A stretch of DNA of 64,000 nt from an uncultured Alphaproteobacteria bacterium (GTDB taxonomy: Bacteria; Pseudomonadota; Alphaproteobacteria; HIMB59): positions 602 through 64,601 of the forward strand of contig CABYQR010000003.1 of assembly GCA_902521155.1 (NCBI GenBank), written 5' to 3'. A program made the translations under genes and the position numbers. The notes beneath the pieces were generated by a model. That model was not told the DNA's origin. It saw nothing but the letters and a program-made list of their open reading frames with translations, and made no database searches. Shown piece by piece: positions 5,396 through 50,851 of this stretch (the first letter of the stretch is position 1; the number at the start of each line of letters is the position of its first letter).

Positions 5396-8300
5396 ATGTC
5401 TAATTCTAAATTTATTCTTTTATGCGAAGATGATAAAATAGCTTTAGACTTTTTAAATATATATAAAGCGCAATATCCTTCTATTAAGATTTGCTATTTC
5501 CCAGCTCATGATTCACTTCCATTCAGTACTGAAAAATCAAGTGAACAAATACTTTTAGATAGATCTAAGAGTTTAATAAATATTAACAAAAATGAAGTCA
5601 TCATAATAACTTGTAATAATCTTTTAAAACTAATTGAAATTAATAAAGGTGTTGATCACTATTTTAAGATTAAGACTAATCAACAATTAAAATTAAAAGA
5701 AATTGTAAAAAAATTAGTTGAATTTGGACATAATAATAATCCTAATGTTTATAATAAATTAGAGTTTTCGCAAAGAGGTGACATCTTAGATATTTATAAT
5801 TGCCAAACAAATCCATATAGAATTTCTTTCTTTGATAATACGATTGAGTCTATCAAACAATTTAATCCTCAAAGTCAATTAACTAACAAAAAAGAAATTG
5901 ATGAAATAACTATTGTAAATCCTTTTATTGAGTCTACTGAAACTAATCATAAAAGTACAAATATTCTAGAATTGCTTGAGGGTTATGATATCAAAACATT
6001 AAATAGAGGTGATTTAATTTTATATGAAAGAATTAAATTTTTTAAATCAATTTATAAACAAAGTGGCATAATAGATCCATATGAGAATTTTTATTTAGAT
6101 GAAGAAATCTTTAAAAAAATCAATTTTGAAAATATTCAAATATCAACTCCAAAGATTTATTTAGATACAAAAAATGTATCTTTGGACTCACTTACTGGCA
6201 TTAAATCTAAAATCATTATACATGAAGGATCTAATGAAACTTCTTTTAAGAAAGAATATTTTGAAAAAATTAAAATAGAACCAAACTATGCCAATAACAT
6301 AACATTTGTAGATACGGTAATTTCTAAAAACTTATCTAGTAATGGGTATATCCACATTAATGCCTACAATAAACCATCCAAGAATGCATTCACAGAGAAT
6401 GTTGTAAGTTTTAATGAGTTAAGTCTTGGCGATGCAATAGTTCATCAAAAACATGGTATAGGAAGATTTTTATCCATAGATAGTATTGAAATAAGTCATA
6501 GAATTAGAGAGTTTGTAAGATTGATTTATCGAAATAATGATAAATTACTACTACCTATAGAAAATTTAAATTTAATATCTAGATACGGTTTTGATGATAG
6601 TGGTGTTATTTTAGATAAATTAGGTAGTTCTGATTTTTCTATTAGAAAAAACTCTGTAAAGAAAAAGATTAAATTTCTTGCCAATAAGTTGCTTAAAAAT
6701 GCCGCCAGAAGAGAGACTTTATCTATTAAATCATTTGACTATTCTGAAAGTAATCTTGAAAAATTTAATAAACAGTTTGGTTTTATTGAAACTGAGGATC
6801 AATTAAATTCTATTGATGTCTCTTTATCAGATCTAAAATCTAATAAACCAGCAAATAGATTAATATGTGGAGATGTTGGTTTTGGTAAAACTGAAGTAGC
6901 TCTCAGAATTGCCTGTGCTACTTATCTATCTGGTTTTCAATTCATAATAGTTGTTCCTACTACTTTATTAGCATTACAGCATAGTCGAACATTTTCTGAT
7001 AGATTTTTAATTTTTAATGAAAGAGTCGCTACTCTATCAAGGTTTACTTCACAAAAAGAAAAAAATGAAATACTTGAAAAGCTTCGAACTGGCGATATTC
7101 AAATACTCATAGCTACACATAGTTTATTTAAAAAAGAAATAGAATTTAATAACCTCGGTACTTTAGTAATAGATGAAGAACAAAAGTTTGGAGTAGATCA
7201 AAAAGAATACCTAATAAATAAATATCCTCACATCCATCTATTTTCACTATCTGCAACTCCCATACCTAGAACACTTCAAATGTCTTTGTTGGGATTAAAA
7301 GATTTAAGTGTAATTGGAACACCGCCCTCTAATAGGTTAGCCATTAGAACTTATGTACAAAGATATGAGCAGGTTTCTTTTTTAACTGCTGTTAATAATG
7401 AAATTTCAAGAAATGGTCAAATTTTTATTGTTGTTCCTCGAATAAGTCATATCCCATTTGTTGAAAGTGAGATTAAGAAATTAAATTTAAATATTAGTTA
7501 TGGGATAGGACATAGCAAAATGAAAGAAAAAGATATAGAGGAAGTCTTTATGTCATTTTCTGAAGGTAGAATACAATGTTTAATATCTACTAATATTATT
7601 GAGTCAGGCATTGATATTAAAAATGCTAATACACTTATAATTTTTAATTCTAATTTATTTGGTTTATCGCAACTTTATCAATTAAGAGGTAGGGTAGGTA
7701 GGTCTGATATAAGAGCTTATGCTTATTTATTTCATGATAGCGAAAAACTTATTAATAAAACGGCACTTAAAAAATTACAAGTGCTAGCAAATTATGAAAA
7801 TTTGGGATCCAATTTTCAATTAGCAAATGAAGATTTAGAGATTAGAGGAGCTGGTAATCTTTTAGGTGATGAACAAAGTGGTCATGTTAAAGAAATAGGA
7901 ATTGAACTCTATCAAAGCATGCTAAGGGAAGAAGTTGAAAGACAAAAAAACAATACATCACCTGAACAAGAAAAATATGAAGATTTTGAATTTAATGCCT
8001 ATTTTGAATATTATATTTCGAAGAATTATATAAAAGATGATATATCAAGATTAATTATTTATCGAAAATTAACAAACGCTCAATCATCACTGGAATTAAA
8101 AAGCATCCTTAATGAAATGTATGATAGGTATGGTAACTACCCACCTGAGGTTACAAATCTTATAAATCTCTTACAAATTAAATTAAAATCCATATCAGTA
8201 GGAATTATCAAAATTAATATTCAAAAAAAATATATAGATCTCTCTTTTATTAAAGTATCTGAAGAAATTTCTAAAATACTAATAAATATGGTTCAAGATA

Positions 8301-21428: not shown

Positions 21429-22200
21429 TTTAATTGATAGCCATGTCAATTTTGGGCATGATCTGCTCAAAAATGATGTCAAAAGAATTTATGAAGAATC
21501 CCTCAATGAAGGAATTGAGAGAATGCTATGTATTAACTCAAACCTTCTTAACTTTCAAAAAGATTTTGAATTAGTTAAAAATCATAAATTTATTGATATG
21601 AGTGTTGGTCATCATCCAAATAGCACAGGGGAAATTGAGTCTAGTGAAATTCCTAAATTTATTGAAAAATATATTAAAGATTCTGATAATAAAATTGTTG
21701 GAATAGGGGAAACAGGACTAGATTATCACTATCAGGTCCCAAGAATAAAACAGATAGAATGTTTCGAACTACATTTAGAATTAGCCTCTAAGTATCATCT
21801 GCCTATTATCGTTCATATGAGAGATGCTGAGGAAGATATGATAGATATACTGAGTAAATACAGGGCAAAACTTTCAAATATTCTCATACACTGCTTCACA
21901 GGCAGTCAAAAATTTGCAAATCAGTGCATTGAAATGGATTGCTATTATTCATTATCTGGAATTATAACCTTTAAAAATGCTGATATTTTAAGGAATGTTA
22001 TTAAAACACTTCCTTTAAATAGGATAATATTTGAAACAGATAGTCCTTATTTAACTCCGGATCCTTTCAGGGGAAAAACAAATGAGCCAAAGTATCTGAA
22101 AACAATTATTGAGAAATATTCAAAAATTATGTCTACTGACCTAGATAATATCAAAAAAGAGAGTACTTCAAATTACAAGAAATTATTTCAAATATTTTAA
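21421..22200 (+). CDS. tatD: TatD family hydrolase
   Basis: IDSHVN, GIGETGLDY, VHMRDA, HCFTG, ETDSPYL. Confidence 0.92.
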   Translation: MSNLIDSHVNFGHDLLKNDVKRIYEESLNEGIERMLCINSNLLNFQKDFELVKNHKFIDMSVGHHPNSTGEIESSEIPKFIEKYIKDSDNKIVGIGETGLDYHYQVPRIKQIECFELHLELASKYHLPIIVHMRDAEEDMIDILSKYRAKLSNILIHCFTGSQKFANQCIEMDCYYSLSGIITFKNADILRNVIKTLPLNRIIFETDSPYLTPDPFRGKTNEPKYLKTIIEKYSKIMSTDLDNIKKESTSNYKKLFQIF

Positions 22201-22204
22201 ATAA

Positions 22205-22987
22205 ATGACTGATAAAATTGAATTAACTGTACTAGGTTGTGGCTCTAGCTTCGGAGTGCCATTATCACATAATATATGGGGAAATTGTGACAGCACTAAC
22301 CCCAAAAATTATAGAACAAGACCTTCAATTTATTTAAAAAAGGGTGATAAATCTATCCTGATAGACACTAGTCCTGATTTAAGACATCAGTTAATTACTA
22401 ACAAAATAGATACAGTAGACGCTGTTATATTTACTCACGCCCACGCAGACCATACCCATGGAATTAATGATTTAAGGTCAATTGCACTAATAAATAAGAA
22501 AAAAATCCCTGTATTTGCTGATAAAAATTCATTAAATACGATTAAAAATAGCTTTTCATATCTATTTACAAAAAATGATAAGCATGGGTATGAGCCTATT
22601 CTTCAAAAAAACATTATTGATAATGAGATATTAGATTTAAATGGATTTAAAATTAGAGTTGTTAAGCAAAATCATGGAAGTACGGACTCATATGGCTTCA
22701 TTTTTGATGATAAATTAGCTTATAATCTTGATATTAAACACTTTTATGATGAAAATTACTTAGAAGGAATAAAGGGCATTAAATGTTGGTTCGTAGGGTG
22801 TTTAAGGTATGAAGATCATCCTTCTCATGCCAGCTATGAGGAAGTTATGAATTGGACCAATAAAGTTAATGCTAAACAAACATTTCTAAGCCATATGACG
22901 GCTATAATTGACTATGATACGGAGTATTCAAAGTTAAGTGCTAAGAACGTGTATCCGGCATATGATGGTCTTAAAATTAGTTTATAA
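22205..22987 (+). CDS. MBL-fold metallo-hydrolase (PhnP-like)
   Basis: LGCGSSFGVP, IDTSPDLR, THAHADHTHG. Confidence 0.9.
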   Translation: MTDKIELTVLGCGSSFGVPLSHNIWGNCDSTNPKNYRTRPSIYLKKGDKSILIDTSPDLRHQLITNKIDTVDAVIFTHAHADHTHGINDLRSIALINKKKIPVFADKNSLNTIKNSFSYLFTKNDKHGYEPILQKNIIDNEILDLNGFKIRVVKQNHGSTDSYGFIFDDKLAYNLDIKHFYDENYLEGIKGIKCWFVGCLRYEDHPSHASYEEVMNWTNKVNAKQTFLSHMTAIIDYDTEYSKLSAKNVYPAYDGLKISL

Positions 22988-40239: not shown

Positions 40240-41400
40240 ATGAATAATTTATTAAAAACATATAACTTTAGTAACTTTGTAATTGTTAAAGGAAATGGAT
40301 GTTATTTATACACAGCTGACAATAAAAAATTATTAGATTTTTCTGCTGGAGTAGCTGTAAACTCATTAGGCTACAATCACTCTACTGTTAAAAAAACTAT
40401 TCAAGAACAATTGAAAACAGGTATTACCCATCTCGCAGGATCACAAATACACTTATATAAATACAAATTATCTCAATTACTCTCTAAAGAGAGTAACAAA
40501 GGTGATGTTTTCTTTTCAAATTCTGGGGCAGAAAGTATTGAAGCTGCTTTAAAAATTGCTCGTAATTTTGGAAGTAGCAAAGGAAGGGATGAAATTATTG
40601 CGATGACTTCTTCTTTTCATGGAAGAACTATCGGTGCTTTATCTGTAGGAAGTAATAAAGCATATAAGTCTAATATAGGTCCAGTACCAGGAAAAGTTAA
40701 GTTTTGCAAATTTAATGATAGTAAAAACTTAAAACAATTGATCAATAAAAAAACTCTAGCAATTATTATAGAATTTATTCAAGGGGATGGAGGAATAAAT
40801 ATTTGTAATAAAGAATTTGCTAAAACTATTAAAGAAATTTGCAAAAAAAGAAAAATTTTATTGATTGCTGATGAAATACAAGGTGGCATAGGAAGAACGG
40901 GTAAAATTTTTGCTTATAAACATTATGGAGTATCTCCTGATATTATCACATCGGCTAAAGGATTAGGTTCAGGAATACCTATCGGAGCGACTATTGTAAA
41001 AAAAGATATAGCTAAGAACATATCTGTAGGTTTTCATGGCTCTACTTTTGGTGGAGGAATGTTGCAAACGAGAGTTGCCTTAAATGTTCTCAAAACTATA
41101 AATAAGATTAGTTTTTTAAAAAACGTTACATCTAAAGGTGTTTTATTAGAAAAACTTTTAAAAAAACTTAAATCTGACCACCAAGTTATAAATGACGTTA
41201 GGATAAAAGGACTTATGGCAGGTATTGAGTTTAAAAACAATAATACAGCATTAAAAATTTATAAAGATGTCTCCAAAAATGGTTTAGTCACTACGCTTGT
41301 TAAAGGAAATATTATTAGAATTACTCCCCCACTTATTATTAAAAATGAAGAACTTAAAAAAGGGATTGCAATTATCTCAAGCTGTTTAGAACAAATATAA
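40240..41400 (+). CDS. argD: Acetylornithine aminotransferase (PLP class III)
   Basis: DFSAGVAVNSLG, FSNSGAES, FHGRT, DEIQGGIGRTG, SAKGLGSG, HGSTFGG. Confidence 0.8.
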   Translation: MNNLLKTYNFSNFVIVKGNGCYLYTADNKKLLDFSAGVAVNSLGYNHSTVKKTIQEQLKTGITHLAGSQIHLYKYKLSQLLSKESNKGDVFFSNSGAESIEAALKIARNFGSSKGRDEIIAMTSSFHGRTIGALSVGSNKAYKSNIGPVPGKVKFCKFNDSKNLKQLINKKTLAIIIEFIQGDGGINICNKEFAKTIKEICKKRKILLIADEIQGGIGRTGKIFAYKHYGVSPDIITSAKGLGSGIPIGATIVKKDIAKNISVGFHGSTFGGGMLQTRVALNVLKTINKISFLKNVTSKGVLLEKLLKKLKSDHQVINDVRIKGLMAGIEFKNNNTALKIYKDVSKNGLVTTLVKGNIIRITPPLIIKNEELKKGIAIISSCLEQI

Positions 41401-41402
41401 GA

Positions 41403-42365
41403 CTAATCATTATTGATATATTTTGTAGTTCCAGAACCATTAATCCAATTCCAGATTAAATCTTGCAAACTATTACCATCAAATTCTTTATAATATAAAT
41501 CAGTAGCAGTCATGACATGACCCCATTCGACATTTCCTTTTAATTTTCTTTTTTCAGCGTTAATTGAAAATCCAGCATTATAAAAATTTGAGTCATTTGT
41601 TATTGATTGTCTAACTTTATTTAAATCACCTTTAATATAAGGGTCACCTATATTCCATATAAAAAATATTTTATTCAAATTATTTCTTTCAAATAACATT
41701 CGAGAAGGAAAACAATTTGACCAATGTGAGTCTTTACAATGATCAACTCGATCATCATATAAAAATTTAACTATTTTTGGCCATGGACCTTCATTCCATT
41801 GTAAACGAACATTATGAGACTCTGTATCCAACCACCAACTATCGGCAATCAAGTAAGGATTATCATATTTTTTTATTAGATCGACATTTAAACCTAAAGC
41901 TAAAGATCCTGCACTATATCCTGCAAAAACTAATTTATCAGCATTTGCAAATTCATTGTCAAATTGTTCAAAGATATCTTCAATAATATAACGTCCATGA
42001 TAATAAACTTCTTTACCATCAATCGTATGTGTATGAGTTCCTTGATGAATATCATTGCTGCAGTAAGGAACAAACAAGACATTAAAACCCCTCTGAATAA
42101 AATCCTCAACCATATGAGTTTTACCCCTATCAGGTGAAACTGCAGGAGATTTCAACCCACTATCCCTTGATCTGTACTGATCCTCATTAGCAGCAACACC
42201 CCCTCCTTGGATATACATTAACCAATTATTTGATTTGCCTTCAAAAAAAGTAAAAGTAGCTTGCTCGCCGTTACTACAAAGAGCTTTAGGGTTTTTAGTA
42301 CTGATTAACTCAGCATTTAATGAATTAAACAAAAAGAAAAAAAATAAAAAAAATAATTTTGACAT
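41403..42365 (-). CDS. Secreted pectinacetylesterase/Notum-family serine hydrolase
   Basis: Signal peptide; ALCSNG, YIQGGG, FVPYCSND, nucleophile GYSAG, C-terminal His. Confidence 0.75.
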   Translation of the reverse strand: MSKLFFLFFFFLFNSLNAELISTKNPKALCSNGEQATFTFFEGKSNNWLMYIQGGGVAANEDQYRSRDSGLKSPAVSPDRGKTHMVEDFIQRGFNVLFVPYCSNDIHQGTHTHTIDGKEVYYHGRYIIEDIFEQFDNEFANADKLVFAGYSAGSLALGLNVDLIKKYDNPYLIADSWWLDTESHNVRLQWNEGPWPKIVKFLYDDRVDHCKDSHWSNCFPSRMLFERNNLNKIFFIWNIGDPYIKGDLNKVRQSITNDSNFYNAGFSINAEKRKLKGNVEWGHVMTATDLYYKEFDGNSLQDLIWNWINGSGTTKYINND

Positions 42366-42401
42366 CAAAATATAATATTAAAATTATATTATTTTAACAG
42401 T

Positions 42402-43253
42402 TTAATAGTCTAAAGATTGTTTTTGAAATACAGTTCCAATGCCCTCTTCTGTCTCTAATTCTGTCAGCAAAGCATTTTTAATTTCACCACTAATTATGTG
42501 AATTTTTTGAACTCCTTGATTGAGAGCTTTTAGAGAGTTTTCAACTTTAACAACCATTCCATTAGTAATAATTTTTTCATCAAATAATTTTTTTGCTACG
42601 TTTTCATCAACAGCAGATATTCTCTCACCCTTGAGATCTTTAATAAAAGGGACATCAGAAATAAAAATTAATTTACTAGCAGATAAGTTGACTGCTAACT
42701 CTGTCGCAATAGTATCTGCGTTAACATTTAATACCTCAGCGGTATTTTTGTCTAAAACTAAACTTGGCATTATAATCATATCATGTTCTTTAAATAATTT
42801 TTGAATTTCTAGTGCATCTACAGAGACAACATCACCTACTTGACCGTAGTTTACTCCATCAATAATTTCTCTTCTTTTTGCTGATATAAAGTCTTTTTTG
42901 GATATAGGTATTGGAAAATTTCTAATGTTATATCTTGAGCTTAAACTAAAAATATCAATCAATATTTGACCAGAAATTTTTTTAGCTGCTTCAATATCAT
43001 CACCTGATGTAATTCTTCTTCCATTAATTTTTTTAGGTTCAAGATTATGAACATTTTTCATGTAATTATCTAATTGTCTTCCAAAACCAAACACTAAAAC
43101 GACTTTTAATTTTGAAATCGTAGATAAAAGTTCTTTAATATCACTGATAACATTTTGTATGTTTTCTTGGTTATCACATATTTTACCACTGACTTTTACG
43201 ACTAATGTCGAATTTTGTAGAATAGACTGATAAAAAGATTGCGTTTTGCTCAT
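42402..43253 (-). CDS. argB: Acetylglutamate kinase, divergent
   Basis: VVKVSG, GRRIT, GQVG, NVNAD, SDV, GMVVK. Start reassigned to ATG 43253, which gives an ATGA overlap with argC. Confidence 0.8.
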   Translation of the reverse strand: MSKTQSFYQSILQNSTLVVKVSGKICDNQENIQNVISDIKELLSTISKLKVVLVFGFGRQLDNYMKNVHNLEPKKINGRRITSGDDIEAAKKISGQILIDIFSLSSRYNIRNFPIPISKKDFISAKRREIIDGVNYGQVGDVVSVDALEIQKLFKEHDMIIMPSLVLDKNTAEVLNVNADTIATELAVNLSASKLIFISDVPFIKDLKGERISAVDENVAKKLFDEKIITNGMVVKVENSLKALNQGVQKIHIISGEIKNALLTELETEEGIGTVFQKQSLDY

Positions 43254-44242
43254 AAATATAAAGGTAACATTTCTTTTAGACCAAGTGATTGGTCTTCTGA
43301 AAACATTAAGTTCATACACTCAACTGCATTACCTGAAGCACCTTTAATTAAATTATCTAAGCAGGTCTCAACTACAAAATTGTTCTCATCTTTTATAGAC
43401 ACTGAAAGATCACAATAGTTAGAGCCAACAACATTAGAAAGCTTTGCCTGTTGTTGAAATCTAACAAAAGGCATATTTATAAAGGTTTTTTGAATTAAAC
43501 TATTAATTGAATTTACATTAATTTGTTCAGATGTCTGTATATGAGCAGTTAGATAAATGCCTCTAGTAAATGGTCCAGATAAGGGAACAAAGGACAATTT
43601 ATCACTTAAATTTGGATAGGATTGAAAAATTTCAGCTAGATGTCTGTGCTTATTGATATTGTATGAAAAAATATCTTTTGAACGAATAGAATGATGATTT
43701 TTTAAAGAAGATAATTTTCCTCCACCGCTAGAACCTGTAATAGCAGTTATTGAAATTTTATTAATAAGTGAGTGAAATGGAAGTATTGCTAATTGGCTAG
43801 CCAGTGCAAAACAACCTGGGTTTGCAATATTTGAAGATTTTTTAATTTCATCTAAGGAAGACTCGATAAAACCATAAGTAAATTTTGATTGAATACTAGG
43901 GTCAAAAGAAGTTTTATAATAAGACTCATATGAACTAACATCGCTAATTCTAAAATCAGAACTTAAATCAATAATTTTTACTTTATTTAATAATTCTTTT
44001 ACATATTCATGAGCTGAACCATGTGGTAAAGATAAAAACACACAATCTAATTCTTTAAAATCATCTAAATTTGATGTTTGAAGTTCATTTAATTTTAATG
44101 AAGTAAGATGAGTAAACTCATCTTCAATTTCAATTTCTCTTTTTAGAATTTTTAAAATTTCAACTTTAGGATGAATTGATAAAATTCTAAGTAGTTCTAA
44201 TCCTAAAAAACCATTTGCGCCTATAACTCCAACTCTAATCAT
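43250..44242 (-). CDS. argC: N-acetyl-gamma-glutamyl-phosphate reductase
   Basis: VGVIGANGFLG, FLSLPHG, IDLSSDFR, IANPGC, GSSGGG, HRHLAEI, DNLIKGASG. Start reassigned to ATG 44242. Confidence 0.9.
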   Translation of the reverse strand: MIRVGVIGANGFLGLELLRILSIHPKVEILKILKREIEIEDEFTHLTSLKLNELQTSNLDDFKELDCVFLSLPHGSAHEYVKELLNKVKIIDLSSDFRISDVSSYESYYKTSFDPSIQSKFTYGFIESSLDEIKKSSNIANPGCFALASQLAILPFHSLINKISITAITGSSGGGKLSSLKNHHSIRSKDIFSYNINKHRHLAEIFQSYPNLSDKLSFVPLSGPFTRGIYLTAHIQTSEQINVNSINSLIQKTFINMPFVRFQQQAKLSNVVGSNYCDLSVSIKDENNFVVETCLDNLIKGASGNAVECMNLMFSEDQSLGLKEMLPLYL

Positions 44243-45281
44243 TATTAATCCTATTAATAATTTTTGCAAAAACGTTTACATGATTAGATGAATTATAAAT
44301 ATTTAAGTAATCTGAATTATCTAGAGTGAATTTCTCAAAAGATTGTTTAAAAGCAGAGACATTATTAGTAACAGGACCACTAATTATTAGAAGTTTATTT
44401 TCTAAGTTATTAGATTTTAAATTTTCGATAATATTAACCGCTCCAGAGATATCGTATGCACATATAATGATAACTTCAATGGAATTGGTAATATCTTTAT
44501 TTTGAATGATCTCTTTTGTTCCATAATCGCCATGATAACCATCTCCTAACTCCATTAGCAAAATATCTGCTCCCTCTGATATATGATTAATTATGGACGA
44601 AGAGCACTCTTGAATAACAGATTTATCTGTCATGCAAGTACTTGGAAGGCCATAATCTACGAAATCAGATGTTTTAAATGCTCCATTGTCTTCATAGGAG
44701 TAAAGGTCTTTTTGGGATGCTGTGCCAGCTAGTTTGCAAGCATTAATCTTCTCATAATACTTACTTAAAGTTTTGATAATGAATGATGTGACGGTAGTTT
44801 TTCCAGAGTCAATACCAGTGCCAATTACAGCAATTGAAGGAACGTGACTAACATTTTTATTTATTTTAATTTTTGAAAAATCTTGTAGATTCAGTTGTTT
44901 GTTAGAATTATCTATAATTGATCCAAGCACTTCACATTCTGTTGCGGGCCCTAAAAGAATATTAAAATCTTTACATGCACCAATAACGCCGCCCAGATTT
45001 AATACATGAATTTTATCATGTTTATTCAACTCTTCTGGAACTGTGCCAGTCATTCCTGATGATGCTATTCTATTGCCTAACGCTCCTATGATGACGTCTC
45101 CCTCGGTTAATTCAGTAATTCTTCCAGATACTAGCTCTAATTTATTGTAATTAGGATTTACAGAAATTACCTTAACTGCAATTAACTGACCTATTTTACA
45201 GTCAATTTCATCAAAAATACTTAGTTCATCTATATTATTGATGTTCTTAAGAACTGAGCCAATTTTTTTTGTATTAATCAT
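44235..45281 (-). CDS. DUF1611/DgcN-like protein with P-loop C-terminal domain
   Basis: LELVSGR...GDVIIGALGNR, LGGVIG, IAVIGTGIDSGKTT, ACKLAG, DFVDYGLPST, ELGDG. Start is ATG 45281 or TTG 45311. Confidence 0.75.
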   Translation of the reverse strand: MINTKKIGSVLKNINNIDELSIFDEIDCKIGQLIAVKVISVNPNYNKLELVSGRITELTEGDVIIGALGNRIASSGMTGTVPEELNKHDKIHVLNLGGVIGACKDFNILLGPATECEVLGSIIDNSNKQLNLQDFSKIKINKNVSHVPSIAVIGTGIDSGKTTVTSFIIKTLSKYYEKINACKLAGTASQKDLYSYEDNGAFKTSDFVDYGLPSTCMTDKSVIQECSSSIINHISEGADILLMELGDGYHGDYGTKEIIQNKDITNSIEVIIICAYDISGAVNIIENLKSNNLENKLLIISGPVTNNVSAFKQSFEKFTLDNSDYLNIYNSSNHVNVFAKIINRINND

Positions 45282-45357
45282 TTTAAGGTTTGTTTTTATA
45301 TAATTATCCAAAATATAAGCAATATTTTATTTATGAATATTTAATAAAATAGCCAAT

Positions 45358-46545
45358 TTAGAGGTTCAAATTACGAACATTTTTAGCAGCTTGCCTTATT
45401 CTCTGTTCATTTTCTACCAAGCCTATTCTAACAAAACCTTCACCATATTCACCAAACGCAATACCTGGAGATACAGCCACATTAGCTTTTGTCATCAAAT
45501 CTTTTGCAAACTTCAGAGATCCTTTATTTTGATATTTTTTAGGTACAGGGGCCCAGGCAAACATACTAGCTTTCGGGCTGGGTATTTCCCATCCTGACCG
45601 AGACATCGACTCCACCATAACATTTCTTCTACTTTCATAAATAGATCTAATCTCAGAAACACAAGACTGAGATGCATTAAGAGCCGTTGCAGCAGCAACT
45701 TGAACAGGAGTAAATGCTCCGTAATCTAAATAGGATTTTATTTTAGTGAGAGCTTCAATTAGTTTTTTATTGCCTACTGCAAAACCAATTCTCCAACCAG
45801 CCATAGCATACGTTTTAGACATTGAGGTAAACTCAACGGCAATTTGTTTAGCTTTACTAACTTGTAAAATAGATGGGGGTGGGCTTTTGTCAAAATATAT
45901 TTCAGCGTAAGCTAGATCTGATAAAACATAAACGTTATACTTTAAGGCAATTTTAATAATTTCTTTATAAAAATCTAAATCCACTACTTGCGCAGTAGGA
46001 TTTGAGGGAAAGGATACTATTAAAGCAACAGGTGTAGGTGAGCTATGCCTTATGGATCTATCCAGTCTTTCTAAGTAAGACTCAGGATCAAATTTCCCAT
46101 CTGTCATTGTTTGAAGATGTCTTAAAGAGGCACCGGCTATAATAAAACCATAAGGATGTATAGGGTAAGAAGGGTTAGGAGAAACAATTATGTCTCCTGG
46201 TGAAGAAATTGCCTGTGCTAGGTTAGCTAGCCCCTCTTTAGAGCCAAGTGTTACAACAACTTCATTTTCAGGGTTTAATTTGACACCAAATCTTTTTTCA
46301 TAATATTTAGCTTGAGCTTTTCTTAGACCAGGAATTCCCCTACTCATTGAATATCTTCCTGTACCTGGTTTATCACTAACTTCTTTTAACTTATCCCTAA
46401 TATGTTTAGGGGTTGGCATATCTGGATTACCCATACCAAAATCGATTATATCTTTGCCTTCTTTTCTCAACTTGGCTTTAAGTTTATTAATCTCACCAAA
46501 AATATAGGGAGGCAATCTATCAATACGATTAAATTCTTTTTTCAC
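45358..46545 (-). CDS. PLP class I aminotransferase (AlaC / LL-DAP aminotransferase-like)
   Basis: RLPPYIF, DFGMGNPD, FPSNPT, DLAY, SMSKTYAMAGWRIG. Confidence 0.88.
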   Translation of the reverse strand: MKKEFNRIDRLPPYIFGEINKLKAKLRKEGKDIIDFGMGNPDMPTPKHIRDKLKEVSDKPGTGRYSMSRGIPGLRKAQAKYYEKRFGVKLNPENEVVVTLGSKEGLANLAQAISSPGDIIVSPNPSYPIHPYGFIIAGASLRHLQTMTDGKFDPESYLERLDRSIRHSSPTPVALIVSFPSNPTAQVVDLDFYKEIIKIALKYNVYVLSDLAYAEIYFDKSPPPSILQVSKAKQIAVEFTSMSKTYAMAGWRIGFAVGNKKLIEALTKIKSYLDYGAFTPVQVAAATALNASQSCVSEIRSIYESRRNVMVESMSRSGWEIPSPKASMFAWAPVPKKYQNKGSLKFAKDLMTKANVAVSPGIAFGEYGEGFVRIGLVENEQRIRQAAKNVRNLNL

Positions 46546-46602
46546 TCTTTTAAAATAGTTATTTTTTAAGATTTCTGAAGTATAAAAACAAAATTATGTA
46601 AA

Positions 46603-47790
46603 TTAAGTGTATTGACCAGCAACATAACCTGAAGACCAGGCCCATTGAAAATTATACCCACCTAAATGACCAGTTACATCGACTACCTCGCCAATAAAAA
46701 ATAAACCTGGATACTTTTTTGACATCATAGTTTTAGAAGAAAGTTCATCAGTGTTAACCCCACCTAGGGTTACTTCAGCAGTTCGATATCCTTCTGTTCC
46801 AGTAGGTTTAAGTTTCCAAGAGTTTAAAAATGATGCTAGATTTAATAATACTTTATTAGGTATCTCTGAAATTTTTCCTTTAATATTTAAGTAGTTACTT
46901 AAAGAGATTGCTAATCTTTTAGGGATAATATCTGAAATTATTGATATTAAATCTTGTTTGGAATGAGATTTTTTTTTGTCTTCTAGAAATTGATAGACAT
47001 TTAAATTAGGACATAAATTGATATCAATTTCATTAGTTAATTTCCAATAGGAAGAAATTTGTAAGATAGATGGACCGCTTAATCCTCGATGGGTAAAAAG
47101 CATTCCTTCTTTAAAAAAAGTCTTACCATAAGAAACAATAGCGTCTTGAGATATTCCAGTAAGTTCTTTACACATCTTTAAAATATTATCACTAAATGTT
47201 AATGGAACTAATGCGGCTGAAGGATCAATGATTTCTAAATCAAATTTTTTTGCTATATCGTATCCAAATTTTGTAGCACCAATTTTAGGTACAGAGAGCC
47301 CTCCTGTTGCAACTACAAGAGATGAACTGATATAATGAGTGTCTCCTAAATCGATAGAATAAAATTTTTCATTTTTGATAATATTAGATACAATTTTTTC
47401 TTTGAAAAGTGTTACACCCGATTTTTCACATTCAGCTAATAGCATATCAATTATGTGTTGAGAACTCTCGTCACAGAAAAGTTGCCCTAATTTTTTTTCA
47501 TGAAACTTAATATTATGAGACTCAACTAATTTTATAAAATCATACTGTGTATATTGACTTAAAGCGGAAACCATAAATTTATCATTATTTGATATAAATT
47601 TAGAATCATGAGTATTGAGATTTGTGAAGTTACACCTACCTCCTCCAGAAATTCTTATTTTCTCACCTATTTTTTTTGAATGATCAATTAGGAGAACGCT
47701 CTTTCCTCTTTTACCAGACTCTATAGCACAAATAAGACCTGCAGCACCAGCGCCAATGATTATGACATCAAAATGATTATCTATTTTCAT
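46603..47790 (-). CDS. HI0933 family flavoprotein (YhiN/BaiN/RdsA-like)
   Basis: GAGAAG, KIRISGGGRCNFTN, ATGGLS, LFTHRGLSGP, VTLGGV, GGYNFQWAWSSG. Confidence 0.92.
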   Translation of the reverse strand: MKIDNHFDVIIIGAGAAGLICAIESGKRGKSVLLIDHSKKIGEKIRISGGGRCNFTNLNTHDSKFISNNDKFMVSALSQYTQYDFIKLVESHNIKFHEKKLGQLFCDESSQHIIDMLLAECEKSGVTLFKEKIVSNIIKNEKFYSIDLGDTHYISSSLVVATGGLSVPKIGATKFGYDIAKKFDLEIIDPSAALVPLTFSDNILKMCKELTGISQDAIVSYGKTFFKEGMLFTHRGLSGPSILQISSYWKLTNEIDINLCPNLNVYQFLEDKKKSHSKQDLISIISDIIPKRLAISLSNYLNIKGKISEIPNKVLLNLASFLNSWKLKPTGTEGYRTAEVTLGGVNTDELSSKTMMSKKYPGLFFIGEVVDVTGHLGGYNFQWAWSSGYVAGQYT

Positions 47791-47814
47791 GAGAATAAAA
47801 TAATTTTAAAGAAA

Positions 47815-48606
47815 TTATAATACTTCAATTTCCCCTCTTAAAAATGTGACTGCTTCTCCACCAATTGATACTCTGTCATGTTTAAAGTTACAATAAACCA
47901 TACCTCCTCTTTCTGATAACTGATATGCAATCATTTCTTTTTTATTAAGTATTTTAGACCAATAAGGTATTAATTCACAATGAGTTGATCCAGTAACTGG
48001 GTCCTCTGGAATACCTAACTTAGGTGCAAAATTCCTTGATACAAAATCTACATCTCTGCCTATAGCTGTAACTACAATTGAAGGAAATTTTAATTGTTTC
48101 AACTTTTCCATATCAGGGCAAATTGCTCTAATGTCATCTTCGCTATCATAAACGGCTATTAAATCTCTATATGCAAAAACTTTAACTGGTTTTTTGCCTA
48201 AAGCATCTTTTAACAAAAATAAATTGAAATGTTCCTGCAATTTAGGAGGCCTTGCTGGAAAATCCATGTGATAGAGATTATCTTTAGTTGTTACATTTAA
48301 AGTGTCACCAAGTTGAGTTTTAAAAGTTATTTTTTTTTTGTCACTTTTAAATTCTCTTAAGATAATATGTGCTGAAGCAAGTGTAGGATGCCCGGCTAGA
48401 TCCATCTCAGCTTTAGGTGTAAACCATCTAATATGATAGATGCCCTTATCTTTTATATAAAATGCAGTTTCAGATAAATTATTTTCCATAGCTATGCTTT
48501 GCATTATTTGATCAGGTAACCATTCTTTAAGTGGGCATACAGCTGCTGGGTTTCCTTTAAATATTTCAGAGGCAAAAGCATCTACTTGATAAAGAGGAAT
48601 TTTCAT
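47815..48606 (-). CDS. PhzF family isomerase/epimerase
   Basis: YQVDAF...GNPAAV, NLSETAF, RWFTP, EDPVTGS. Confidence 0.92.
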   Translation of the reverse strand: MKIPLYQVDAFASEIFKGNPAAVCPLKEWLPDQIMQSIAMENNLSETAFYIKDKGIYHIRWFTPKAEMDLAGHPTLASAHIILREFKSDKKKITFKTQLGDTLNVTTKDNLYHMDFPARPPKLQEHFNLFLLKDALGKKPVKVFAYRDLIAVYDSEDDIRAICPDMEKLKQLKFPSIVVTAIGRDVDFVSRNFAPKLGIPEDPVTGSTHCELIPYWSKILNKKEMIAYQLSERGGMVYCNFKHDRVSIGGEAVTFLRGEIEVL

Positions 48607-48643
48607 AAATTTAAAGAATAAAGAGTAATTTTAATAAAAATTA

Positions 48644-49285
48644 TTAAAATCTGTGTTTACCGCCTACATAATCATGATTTATTATAACTTCATTTTCTGG
48701 GATAGATGACCAATGATCAGTATGTTTATCCATTCTATTATATTCTTTAGGTAACCATAATTGATTTAGCGGGGGTTTAAAATTGTTAAAAGCTAAATCT
48801 AAAATTGGATCATTATTTTTTTTTTCTTTTAATGAGGATGTTATCTCAATCCATCTAATTAAAAGCTCAATAGCTGGGGCTGTATATGCAAACTTTTGAA
48901 CACCACCTGCACAAAATAATTTTTCAGAATTAGGATCATAAGATATTTTACCATCTAAATGATGATTATTATCTGCTAACCAATTATAAATAGCGAAATC
49001 ATAGTTTTTAAAAAGTAAATTAGGAAAACTCCAAATTTCAGTATCAATATCAAGCCAAACAACAGATTTTCTAAATTTTAGTAAATTGGTTAGGATAAAT
49101 CTAGGTTTATAAGCAACACCATCCTGCCAAGAATTGAACTTATTAATTTTTTCAATACTATATTTTAAATTAAATTTATTTAGTGATTTTTCTAACTTTT
49201 CTTTTAAGGATGGATAATTGCCGTCAATAGAGTAATAAGAAATAAATATAGTGTTTTCTGTATTATATGTTTCAGAGGTATTCAT
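48644..49285 (-). CDS. Putative nucleotide-diphospho-sugar transferase (GT-A fold)
   Basis: YKPRFI and VVWLDID (DxD motif), WLPKEY. Confidence 0.65.
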   Translation of the reverse strand: MNTSETYNTENTIFISYYSIDGNYPSLKEKLEKSLNKFNLKYSIEKINKFNSWQDGVAYKPRFILTNLLKFRKSVVWLDIDTEIWSFPNLLFKNYDFAIYNWLADNNHHLDGKISYDPNSEKLFCAGGVQKFAYTAPAIELLIRWIEITSSLKEKKNNDPILDLAFNNFKPPLNQLWLPKEYNRMDKHTDHWSSIPENEVIINHDYVGGKHRF

Positions 49286-49294
49286 AAATTTAAA

Positions 49295-50851
49295 TTAATT
49301 ATTATTAAAAAAACCTTCAACCCAATTATGATCTTTAGACTGATTAGTAATATTATTATATCCAAATTTATATACAAAAGTAGGTGTTGAACAGTGAAGG
49401 CTTATTGGGGTGTAGTCTAGAGGTTTAATTAATTTATAACATTCTCTAAAGCTATCAATATTTTGATGTTCAATTATAATAATAGGATGATATTTAGATA
49501 TAATTTTCATAGAGCCGGAGAGGACTTCATACTCAAAACCCTCTGTATCAATCTTTAACAAATCAACTGATTGATTTAAATCAAAAGATTCATCCAAGGT
49601 TTTGATCAATAATTTATTGGTTTCTTTATAATTATTATTAGATAAAAAACTTCCTGATCCCAAATTATCTGAGGTAGCTTTATAAAAGTTTTCATATCTT
49701 TGATGGCTTCCGAGACCATATGTAAAGATTTCACCATCAATTTTATTTAATTCAAGATTAATTTTTAAAATCTCTGCAATGTCTGGGTCTGGTTCATAAC
49801 AAAAAACTTTATAACCATCAATACCTGAAAACCCAATTGCATGATTTCCAATATTTGATCCTACATCAATAACATATTTTGGATGAAAATTCCTTTTTAT
49901 ATAACTAATCAAATCTTCTTCATAGAATTTTTTAGTTTTTAAAATATGTTGACCAATATGATCATTTTCTGTTTGAAGAACATGGCCACTAATTAATTTT
50001 ATTCGTTTGTTATCTTTTAAATGTTTTATAGAATTATTAATTACATTTTCAAGTGACTTGGGCATGCCAAATCTTTTGATCATATTATCAATTTGAATGT
50101 CATTATTGATCTTATTTAACTCCCATAGAGAACTTTCATTTGGATTGTTTAGGTTTAAAAAATCACGTCTTCCAATCAATGAGGCAAATTTATTACTTTC
50201 CAAATGGTTAAAATAATACCAAATATCATCTGCTGTTGGACATAAACTAATTGCTAATTCCATATCAAAAATTCTCTCATTAAATGAATTTGGGGGATAT
50301 AAAATCCCACCAACCCCAGTGGGAAAAATAATAGGATTATTTAATAAACAGTAATTATCTAATGGAGATTGGGCAACCCAATCATTATAAGGTTGAATAG
50401 ATCCAGATTCATTAAATTGTAATAAATGTCCCCTATGTGCTATTATCCCTCCAATTTTTTTATAGGACTCTACTAATTCTTCTAACCACGTTGGTTTATA
50501 TGCTACATCATCATCAGCAACAACTATATATGAATCAGGGAATTCTTCTAAAGCTGGAATTAACTTAAGATATTGTTTCAAATTTTTAGGATATAATCTA
50601 ATTTCTAATTTATTTCTTTTTAATAATTTTATATTTTCAGGGAGTTTTTTAAAATCTTCCTCCCATAGCCATAAAATAACTTTGTCAGGGCTCATACTTT
50701 GATTTAACAATGATAAAATACTTACATATAGGCAACCAAATCTATTTGGATAAGAAGTCAAATTAACAATAAGATTTTTAGATAAACCATGGTTTTTAAA
50801 AGTGGATGGCCTCATTAATAAAATTAGGTTTATAAAATTTTGATAATTCAT
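49295..50851 (-). CDS. Glycosyltransferase (GT-A)-FkbM methyltransferase fusion
   Basis: N-terminal LTSYPNR, SLLNQS, VADDD, ADDIW; C-terminal IDVGSNIG, YEP, LKIDTEGFE. Confidence 0.8.
   Translation of the reverse strand: MNYQNFINLILLMRPSTFKNHGLSKNLIVNLTSYPNRFGCLYVSILSLLNQSMSPDKVILWLWEEDFKKLPENIKLLKRNKLEIRLYPKNLKQYLKLIPALEEFPDSYIVVADDDVAYKPTWLEELVESYKKIGGIIAHRGHLLQFNESGSIQPYNDWVAQSPLDNYCLLNNPIIFPTGVGGILYPPNSFNERIFDMELAISLCPTADDIWYYFNHLESNKFASLIGRRDFLNLNNPNESSLWELNKINNDIQIDNMIKRFGMPKSLENVINNSIKHLKDNKRIKLISGHVLQTENDHIGQHILKTKKFYEEDLISYIKRNFHPKYVIDVGSNIGNHAIGFSGIDGYKVFCYEPDPDIAEILKINLELNKIDGEIFTYGLGSHQRYENFYKATSDNLGSGSFLSNNNYKETNKLLIKTLDESFDLNQSVDLLKIDTEGFEYEVLSGSMKIISKYHPIIIIEHQNIDSFRECYKLIKPLDYTPISLHCSTPTFVYKFGYNNITNQSKDHNWVEGFFNNN

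Follow-up and report, generated by a model that had tools for sequence, protein, structure and literature searches.

The first step of arginine biosynthesis is assigned to the classical N-acetylglutamate synthases (NAGS; ArgA, NAGS-K, S-NAGS, C-NAGS and the Bacteroidetes ArgA2, BT3761) and to bifunctional ArgJ. Other substitutes proposed for ArgA, namely the Bacteroidetes GNAT protein ArgA2, C-NAGS and the M20D protein 'ArgA3' (now reinterpreted as a deacetylase), have folds unrelated to that of the protein described here. The closest described system to the one reported here is a Steroidobacter protein (ACG33_RS14135, A0A127FCT3) that was predicted, without experiment, to be an N-succinylglutamate synthase (GapMind 2026, bioRxiv 10.1101/2024.10.14.618325, Appendix 2). 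The prediction drew on the neighbouring genes, a lack of co-occurrence with ArgA, weak similarity to 7XRJ by Foldseek and a residue of ArgF'; the preprint called this hypothetical protein of the arginine cluster a very distant homologue of DgcN, and Steroidobacter denitrificans also lacked ArgE (bioRxiv 10.1101/2024.10.14.618325). A literature search found no published test of the function of this family and, in the library covered, no other paper that mentions the protein. Here we describe gene X, probably a divergent member of the family, in 64,000 nucleotides (nt) of DNA (the window) from an uncultured alphaproteobacterium of the HIMB59 clade (assembly GCA_902521155.1, contig CABYQR010000003.1, positions 602 to 64,601 of the forward strand). 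We infer, at a probability of about 0.7, that X is the missing first arginine enzyme of this bacterium and would act as an N-acyl-L-glutamate synthase.

The functional idea is already in the preprint, which bears out the mention, in an earlier note on this DNA, of a similar proposal for another bacterium; what the window contributes is an extension of that idea with further detail, and not the idea itself. Three features of the preprint's case were reproduced here: an arginine-cluster protein beside argG or argC, no co-occurrence with ArgA, and a weak likeness to the DgcN fold. What is new is the divergent HIMB59 branch, in which, unlike the GapMind case, the displaced enzyme is ArgJ, the genus-mates have a classical ornithine carbamoyltransferase (OTCase) instead of ArgF', and neither ArgE nor another dedicated deacylase was found.

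Gene X is translationally coupled to argC and argB

Gene X encodes a two-domain P-loop protein of 348 amino acids and occupies 44235..45281 on the minus strand including its stop codon (44235-44237); the coding part, 44238-45281, starts with ATG. The range given in the earlier note ended at 45311, which corresponds to an upstream TTG; homologues of 348 amino acids beginning MINTKKIGS speak against this start and for the ATG at 45281. X is followed on the same strand by argC (43250..44242, or 43253-44242 without its stop codon), which scored 280.6 bits with TIGR01850 against a cut-off of 233.6, and by a gene for an argB-type N-acylglutamate kinase (42402..43253, or 42405-43253 without its stop codon) that contains only the amino-acid-kinase domain (PF00696). 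This kinase scored 125 bits with TIGR00761, under the cut-off of 151, and its best match was the kinase part of ArgA models (141 bits with the kinase part of NF003641). The stop of X and the start of argC share ATGATTAG (8 nt), and the stop of argC and the start of argB share ATGA. The argD gene for N-acylornithine aminotransferase (40240..41400, plus strand; PF00202; TIGR00707, 395 bits) is convergent to the operon and ends 1002 nt from argB, a neighbourhood that is kept in HIMB59 loci. Both overlaps and the 1-kb distance to argD were read directly and were as the earlier note had described them.

The host genome is 1.11 Mb in 41 contigs and 78% complete, and the G+C content of the window is 25-34%. 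Among the matches listed, the closest X loci were 95-98% identical and came from genomes of single cells and metagenomes that bear the label HIMB59 or Pelagibacteraceae.

X occupies arginine operons that encode every step except the first

A word-indexed search with X returned 291 relatives, every one annotated as hypothetical. An exhaustive profile search gave 594 clusters (50% identity) at E ≤ 1e-30 and 1,356 at E ≤ 1e-10, and pattern scans of contigs at one genome per species confirmed at least 571-592 relatives per scan. The family includes many Steroidobacteraceae and Woeseiaceae. In Steroidobacter flavus, a congener of S. denitrificans, the order argG-X-argC-argD includes an X protein of 360 amino acids without a family assignment. 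It aligned with the window protein at 30% identity over 312 amino acids (147 bits, E 4e-46), and through this congener we identify the window protein as a probable divergent member of the family described in the preprint.

All open reading frames were clustered in 82 loci, 29 of which lie outside the HIMB59 clade. These 29 loci are from Acidobacteriota, Planctomycetota, Armatimonadota, Spirochaetota, Gemmatimonadota, Myxococcota, Bdellovibrionota, two candidate phyla and other Alphaproteobacteria. X adjoins argC in 26 of the 29 (from at least nine phyla), and the other companions are argD (22 loci), a carbamoyltransferase gene (21), argB (20), argG (20), argH (18) and argR (11). Three homologues with 33-37% identity lie in operons of the order argR-argG-X-argC-argD-argF-argB-argH. 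An M20 deacylase of the ArgE/DapE family is encoded between argB and argH in 10 X loci, and in four the gene directly ahead of X encodes an M20D amidohydrolase. No X operon of the diverse loci carried an enzyme for step 1. As these operons hold ArgB, ArgC, ArgD, the carbamoyltransferase, ArgG, ArgH and often a deacylase, all steps are encoded save the first. The same slot is filled in the arginine operons of Bacteroidetes by their GNAT gene; unlike the classical synthases and ArgJ, however, X has neither a GNAT nor an ArgJ (Ntn-type) domain and its fold is unrelated to theirs.

One family member (P0167, 626 amino acids; 5848-7881 of locus L118, also L119-L121) combines X and an amino-acid-kinase domain in one reading frame. 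The fusion was identical in four metagenome samples with the frame read through, and its gene is divergent from an arginase-family gene. It resembles ArgA and bifunctional NAGS-K, in which a kinase and a synthase are likewise fused, and links X to the step that adjoins the kinase reaction. The X part of this protein lacks the N-terminal KIGS motif, and Ala replaces the Cys274 of most family members. Longer fusions with ArgC, ArgG and ArgD domains (P0267, P0268 and P0269) were singletons that may be artefacts of read-through from one overlapping gene into the next, and were not used as evidence.

Two alphaproteobacterial X operons contain a gene resembling dimethylarginine dimethylaminohydrolase or arginine dihydrolase between argD and the OTCase gene (L001:12303-13298; L080:12277-13371). 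A gene of this guanidino-modifying superfamily is an odd member of a biosynthetic arginine operon.

X and ArgJ exclude each other

The earlier note had seen no argA or argJ in the window, and this extends to the whole genome. ArgJ (PF01960) was not found in the 78%-complete genome, nor was a classical ArgA, as TIGR01890 matched only the kinase domain of argB. Relatives were sampled in 41 genomes, 25 from the HIMB59 genus and 16 from a sister family. X was present in 22 of the 25 genus genomes and ArgJ in none; the three without X also lacked argC, and in one genus genome that is 94% complete (G021) X, ArgJ and argC were absent together. In the sister family ArgJ was present in 15 of 16 genomes, and the sole genome without it (G038) was the sole carrier of X.

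The anticorrelation that the earlier note had proposed as a check held beyond this order. ArgJ was found in none of 27 diverse genomes with X, and a classical ArgA over cut-off in none of 32, where only kinase-domain matches and, in the larger genomes, weak matches to small GNAT proteins were seen. Among 101 Acidobacteriota, strong X matches were found in 25 genomes and ArgJ in 23, with an overlap of 0 compared to 5.7 expected; the hypergeometric probability of 5e-4 ignores relatedness and is descriptive only. The result was unchanged when one of these 25 genomes (G240, unpublished) was left out.

Core X was present in only one of 401 Pseudomonadota genomes besides the window's own. Two Pseudomonadota genomes contained distant X-like proteins (143-178 bits to the X profile) encoded away from arginine genes, and one such protein coexists with ArgJ in Acidobacteriota, so the proposed arginine role should go to the core family alone. 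Of the two distant genes, one (L125:1441-2463) and the other (L126:1378-2487) lie either directly downstream of an M20 peptidase gene or upstream of an ABC transporter gene, one in each setting. A few X-family members and the X-like group gave sub-threshold matches to PF07755 (E ~3e-4), and the distant subfamily is possibly a bridge between X and DUF1611.

Genome G038, from the same order and 92% complete, contains X-argC-argB and two M20D amidohydrolases. OTCase and ArgH were not found in it, where only aspartate carbamoyltransferase and other lyases were seen. The pathway of this organism may end at ornithine; alternatively, the two genes may lie in unassembled sequence.

X is a remote relative of DUF1611 that keeps ATP-type motifs

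X has no Pfam or NCBIfam match at E ≤ 0.01. At E ≤ 10 only weak P-loop matches (E 0.025-0.039) appeared, to AAA_26 (PF13500; 14.2 bits, cut-off 27) and CbiA (PF01656; 15.0 bits, cut-off 25.4). PF07755, the DUF1611 model, did not match X even at E ≤ 10 and matched nothing in the whole window genome. The AlphaFold (AF2) model of X has a mean pLDDT (predicted local distance difference test) of 92.6 and comprises two domains. Residues 1-140 (44862..45281, minus strand) form an all-beta domain, with a pLDDT of 93.5 when modelled separately. Residues 141-348 (44238..44861, minus strand) form a P-loop domain of the SIMIBI or dethiobiotin-synthetase-like type, as identified by VIA-align, Foldseek and profile search.

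The highest VIA-align scores for X were obtained with 2g0t (TM0796, DUF1611; Z 15.2) and four dethiobiotin synthetases (Z 15.0-15.2), followed by 2obn (DUF1611; Z 13.2) and DgcN (7xrj; Z 12.8). Each of these matches spans about 180 residues and covers only the P-loop domain, and because 2g0t is tied with the dethiobiotin synthetases the match to the DUF1611 P-loop fold is not specific. Foldseek with the whole model gave generic SIMIBI matches (HypB, BioD and signal recognition particle (SRP) GTPases; UreG and MeaB-type proteins), with the DUF1611 structures outside the top 50. A profile search of the PDB returned only P-loop matches to BioD, at E 0.0075 and weaker. For the N-terminal domain, the best VIA-align Z was 3.2, none of 48,161 PDB chains reached Z ≥ 5, and the best Foldseek E was 0.68. 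The DUF1611 structures 2g0t, 2obn and 7xrj were not among its matches, and it cannot be recognized as a DUF1611 N-terminal domain, although a missing match is no proof of a different or new fold. We propose that it is a substrate-binding domain.

A direct comparison was made with 15 DUF1611 proteins that score 228-271 bits with PF07755. Alignment of the X family to this set by hhalign gave a probability of about 1% over 36 aligned columns, all in the P-loop. The DUF1611 proteins carry GTDCxxGK without a following Thr or Ser, ATGQTG and EGQGS, whereas X carries GTxxxSGKT, AxKxxG and ELGDG in the matching places. On the low probability, the restriction to the P-loop and the differing motifs, X is a remote superfamily relative of DUF1611 and not a member, and the 'DUF1611-like' label that the earlier note gave it was dropped. 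The earlier note also saw no DgcA-type epimerase nearby, an absence at which no dedicated search was aimed.

The Walker A motif of X, GTGIDSGKT, spans residues 154-162 (44796..44822, minus strand). An alignment of 30 family members has 37 invariant columns, which include G160-K161-T162 of this motif, K183, D192, D198, S214-T215 and E244-x-G-D247-G, as well as K6, S9, Y45, E49, R54, R71, G97 and G98 in the N-terminal domain. In an HMMER alignment to the dethiobiotin synthetase of Mycobacterium tuberculosis (3fgn), K183 falls on the conserved Lys of the 'CKPVQTG' segment, and the aligned region also takes in the P-loop. The matching residues bind Mg-ATP and substrate in dethiobiotin synthetase. 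X resembles BioD (PF13500) in the Walker A motif GxxxxGKT, in a conserved Lys after strand 2 and in an acidic ExGxG segment. BioD is the best sequence-profile match of X in the PDB and a tied best fold match; X differs from it in the extra N-terminal domain of 140 amino acids and in a context of arginine rather than biotin genes. The D-glutamate N-acetyltransferase DgcN (PF07755 plus DUF1611_N; 7XRJ, 2OBN, 2G0T) shares with X a length of about 340 amino acids, two domains and a C-terminal SIMIBI-type P-loop, but its Walker A motif reads GK[M/R] instead of GKT. The PDB entry 7xrj names DgcN an N-acetyltransferase, and DgcN is said to depend on acetyl-CoA. N-acylation of glutamate, only proposed for X, would thus serve biosynthesis from L-glutamate, in contrast to the catabolism of D-glutamate by DgcN. 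In its motifs X is no further from the ATP-using dethiobiotin synthetase than from DUF1611, and its retention of ATP-type motifs, which are missing from DgcN-type proteins, is an observation new to this work.

The carbamoyltransferase and the acyl group

The acetylornithine carbamoyltransferase (AOTCase) of Xanthomonas campestris has Glu92 in the segment MDGDT-E-EHI, and E92A and E92S variants at this position are in the PDB. None of the 17 ArgF' proteins encoded beside X has Glu at position 92; Ala occurs in nine, Val in three, and Ser, Thr, Ile, Pro and Gln once each. This spectrum agrees with that in the GapMind 2026 preprint. A residue other than Glu at this position suggests that most of the X family works with succinylated intermediates. 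The acetyl group that the earlier note had assumed is therefore not supported, as these 17 neighbours and the preprint both point to succinyl for most members.

Classical OTCase was found in four X loci of other Alphaproteobacteria and Pseudobdellovibrionaceae. In the tree the X proteins of these four loci group together (support 100/99) within the diversity that is linked to ArgF'. The HIMB59 genus-mates also have a classical OTCase (286.7 bits with PRK00779 compared to 102.8 with AOTCase) together with ArgH, and the succinyl argument of the preprint therefore does not carry over to HIMB59. For this clade neither acetyl nor succinyl is indicated, as a classical OTCase is uninformative on this point. 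If X is the synthase, the HIMB59 branch implies that the ArgF'/succinyl route is not a requirement for the family.

In the window's own genome tblastn found ArgG but no OTCase, ArgH, M20D or ArgJ. Since the missing OTCase and ArgH are present in the more complete genus-mates, their absence reflects the 78% completeness. No dedicated ArgE or M20D deacylase was found in HIMB59 genomes, in which DapE was the only M20 enzyme. It scored 372.9 bits with TIGR01246, over the cut-off, and its gene adjoins dapD; in the window's genome it is on contig 11 at 21686-22792.

Two other candidates were set aside. The pectinacetylesterase-like gene at 41403-42368 was ruled out as the missing deacylase on account of its signal-peptide-like N-terminus, its presence in about one in 40 HIMB59 loci and the variable slot it occupies. 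A LysW-carrier route was dropped because no LysW-like small gene recurred and the kinase scored far below LysZ models.

The proposed reaction and the alternatives

Adjacency to argC, operons without a step-1 enzyme, the exclusion of ArgJ, the joint loss of X and argC in G021 and the fusion to an ArgB-type kinase together make X most likely the missing synthase. X would acylate L-glutamate at its alpha-amino group and so supply N-acyl-glutamate to the coupled ArgB-type kinase, ArgC and ArgD. The acyl donor could be an acyl-CoA, as in DgcN, or the free acid with ATP, as the dethiobiotin-synthetase-like motifs would allow. X would replace ArgJ or ArgA by non-orthologous displacement, an idea of the earlier note that comparative genomics supports well through operon position, the empty first step, the ArgJ/ArgA exclusion and the fusion. 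The nearest folds, DgcN and dethiobiotin synthetase, both form C-N bonds at an amino group, which by analogy lends support to this chemistry. The presence of the rest of the pathway (OTCase and ArgH in genus-mates, ArgG in the genome itself) is likewise consistent with X as step 1.

Several points weigh against this assignment. A replacement of ArgJ needs a deacylase, and as none but DapE was found the reconstructed pathway still has a gap. Because the genome is 78% complete, the absence of ArgJ and ArgA rests mainly on its relatives, and as kin are not independent the co-occurrence counts overstate significance. Some of the larger genomes with X gave weak matches to small stand-alone GNAT proteins, which are possible synthases there. 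The window protein scores about one fifth of its self-match against the protein of the Steroidobacter genus, below the bit-score ratio of 25-30% in the preprint. In the tree the HIMB59 proteins, which are biased in composition, form a clade of their own with a long branch (2.64 changes per site); the branch length and the low score mean that function transfer must reach further. The synthase role itself is a prediction from sequence comparison, here as in the preprint.

Within the synthase assignment, a tentative refinement is that X is an ATP-dependent (ADP-forming) amide ligase that would form the acyl phosphate of free succinate or acetate and link it to the glutamate amino group, in the manner of dethiobiotin synthetase and CobB/CobQ-type enzymes and in contrast to an acyl-CoA transferase such as DgcN. 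BioD, CobQ/CobB and the N-terminal domain of CTP synthase are ATP-dependent P-loop enzymes that form C-N bonds. The canonical Walker A residues G160-K161-T162 are invariant in X, as are K183, D192, D198 and the E244-x-G-D247-G segment; K183 aligns with the Lys of dethiobiotin synthetase where DUF1611 has ATGQTG, and the fold match to dethiobiotin synthetases equals that to any DUF1611 structure and exceeds that to DgcN. On the other side, DgcN is the sole characterized comparable enzyme with this fold class and is named an N-acetyltransferase, and motif conservation cannot separate ATP from the ADP moiety of CoA. The acetyl-CoA dependence that the earlier note had assigned to X is only an analogy, as the GKT Walker A motif and the dethiobiotin-synthetase-type lysine fit ATP-dependent ligation equally. 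Rather improbable is a more specific version for a streamlined HIMB59 pathway, in which X would ligate glutamate to succinate or acetate at the expense of ATP and DapE, the desuccinylase of lysine synthesis, would deacylate N-acylornithine before the classical OTCase. If true, arginine and lysine synthesis would share succinyl-handling enzymes.

X could instead catalyse no step and only assist the arginine enzymes as an NTPase, be it a metallochaperone, an assembly factor or a regulator, in cells where a small GNAT or promiscuous enzyme performs step 1. The best Foldseek matches are indeed metallochaperone GTPases of the HypB, UreG and MeaB types and SRP GTPases, and the M20 deacylases of X operons are metalloenzymes. 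We consider this unlikely, as it leaves the strict ArgJ/ArgA exclusion and the empty first step unexplained. In addition, no GNAT-region match was seen in the HIMB59 genomes, X also occurs in operons without an M20 enzyme, and the strongly conserved N-terminal domain, with Arg, Lys, Tyr and Glu among its invariant residues, has the look of a binding site for a small molecule. A further reading starts from the enzyme excluded by X, because the universal activity of ArgJ is that of an ornithine acetyltransferase. X might replace this activity, transferring (perhaps back to glutamate) or removing the acyl group of N-acylornithine or N-acylcitrulline at the fifth step, while an unrecognized enzyme performs step 1. 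The lack of a dedicated ArgE or M20D enzyme in HIMB59, and of ArgE in S. denitrificans according to the preprint, would fit. However, a gene for an M20 or M20D deacylase accompanies X in at least 14 operons, which would duplicate this function and leave step 1 empty; no classical ArgA accompanies X; a P-loop NTP-type site is not needed by a hydrolase or simple transacylase; and the kinase fusion points to step 2, not step 5. This reading is very doubtful.

If X is an N-acyl-L-glutamate synthase, it would be a further solution to the first step, with a structure unrelated to those of ArgJ and the GNAT-type enzymes, and hundreds of species from at least nine phyla would use it. Automated reconstructions that seek ArgA or ArgJ would then miscall HIMB59/AEGEAN-169-type bacteria as arginine auxotrophs. 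These bacteria recur in seawater read sets, and a miscalled auxotrophy would matter for nutrient-dependence models of streamlined ocean bacteria.

Neighbouring genes and minor observations

The predicted complex of X with ArgB scored 0.28 compared to a mark of 0.32, which says nothing either way. A promoter and terminator scan of 41300-46700 gave counts equal to the shuffled expectation and was uninformative. In the RNA libraries of two seawater studies, contigs with 92-99% identity covered X, argC and argB and ran across the two junctions between these genes as well as the intergenic region upstream; this is weak evidence, by which neither transcription nor a single transcript can be proven.

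A class I/II aminotransferase gene (45358..46545, minus strand) lies 77 nt upstream of X and holds the same position in all 53 HIMB59-clade loci examined. It scored 667.8 bits with NF006604 (PRK09148) against a cut-off of 648, and it is at most a candidate member of the arginine pathway. NF006604 denotes 'LL-diaminopimelate aminotransferase', yet the genome holds the dapD-dapE genes of the succinylase route on contig 11. Further upstream, 46603-50851 (minus strand) encodes an HI0933-like flavoprotein, a PhzF-family isomerase and open reading frames of 213 and 518 amino acids.

The pectinacetylesterase-family gene between argB and argD (PF03283) is on the minus strand. Over about 40 HIMB59-clade loci this slot is empty or holds an unrelated gene for about 507 amino acids or a small open reading frame, and the pectinacetylesterase gene was present in one other locus only. 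The slot between argB and argD looks like a small insertion hot spot.

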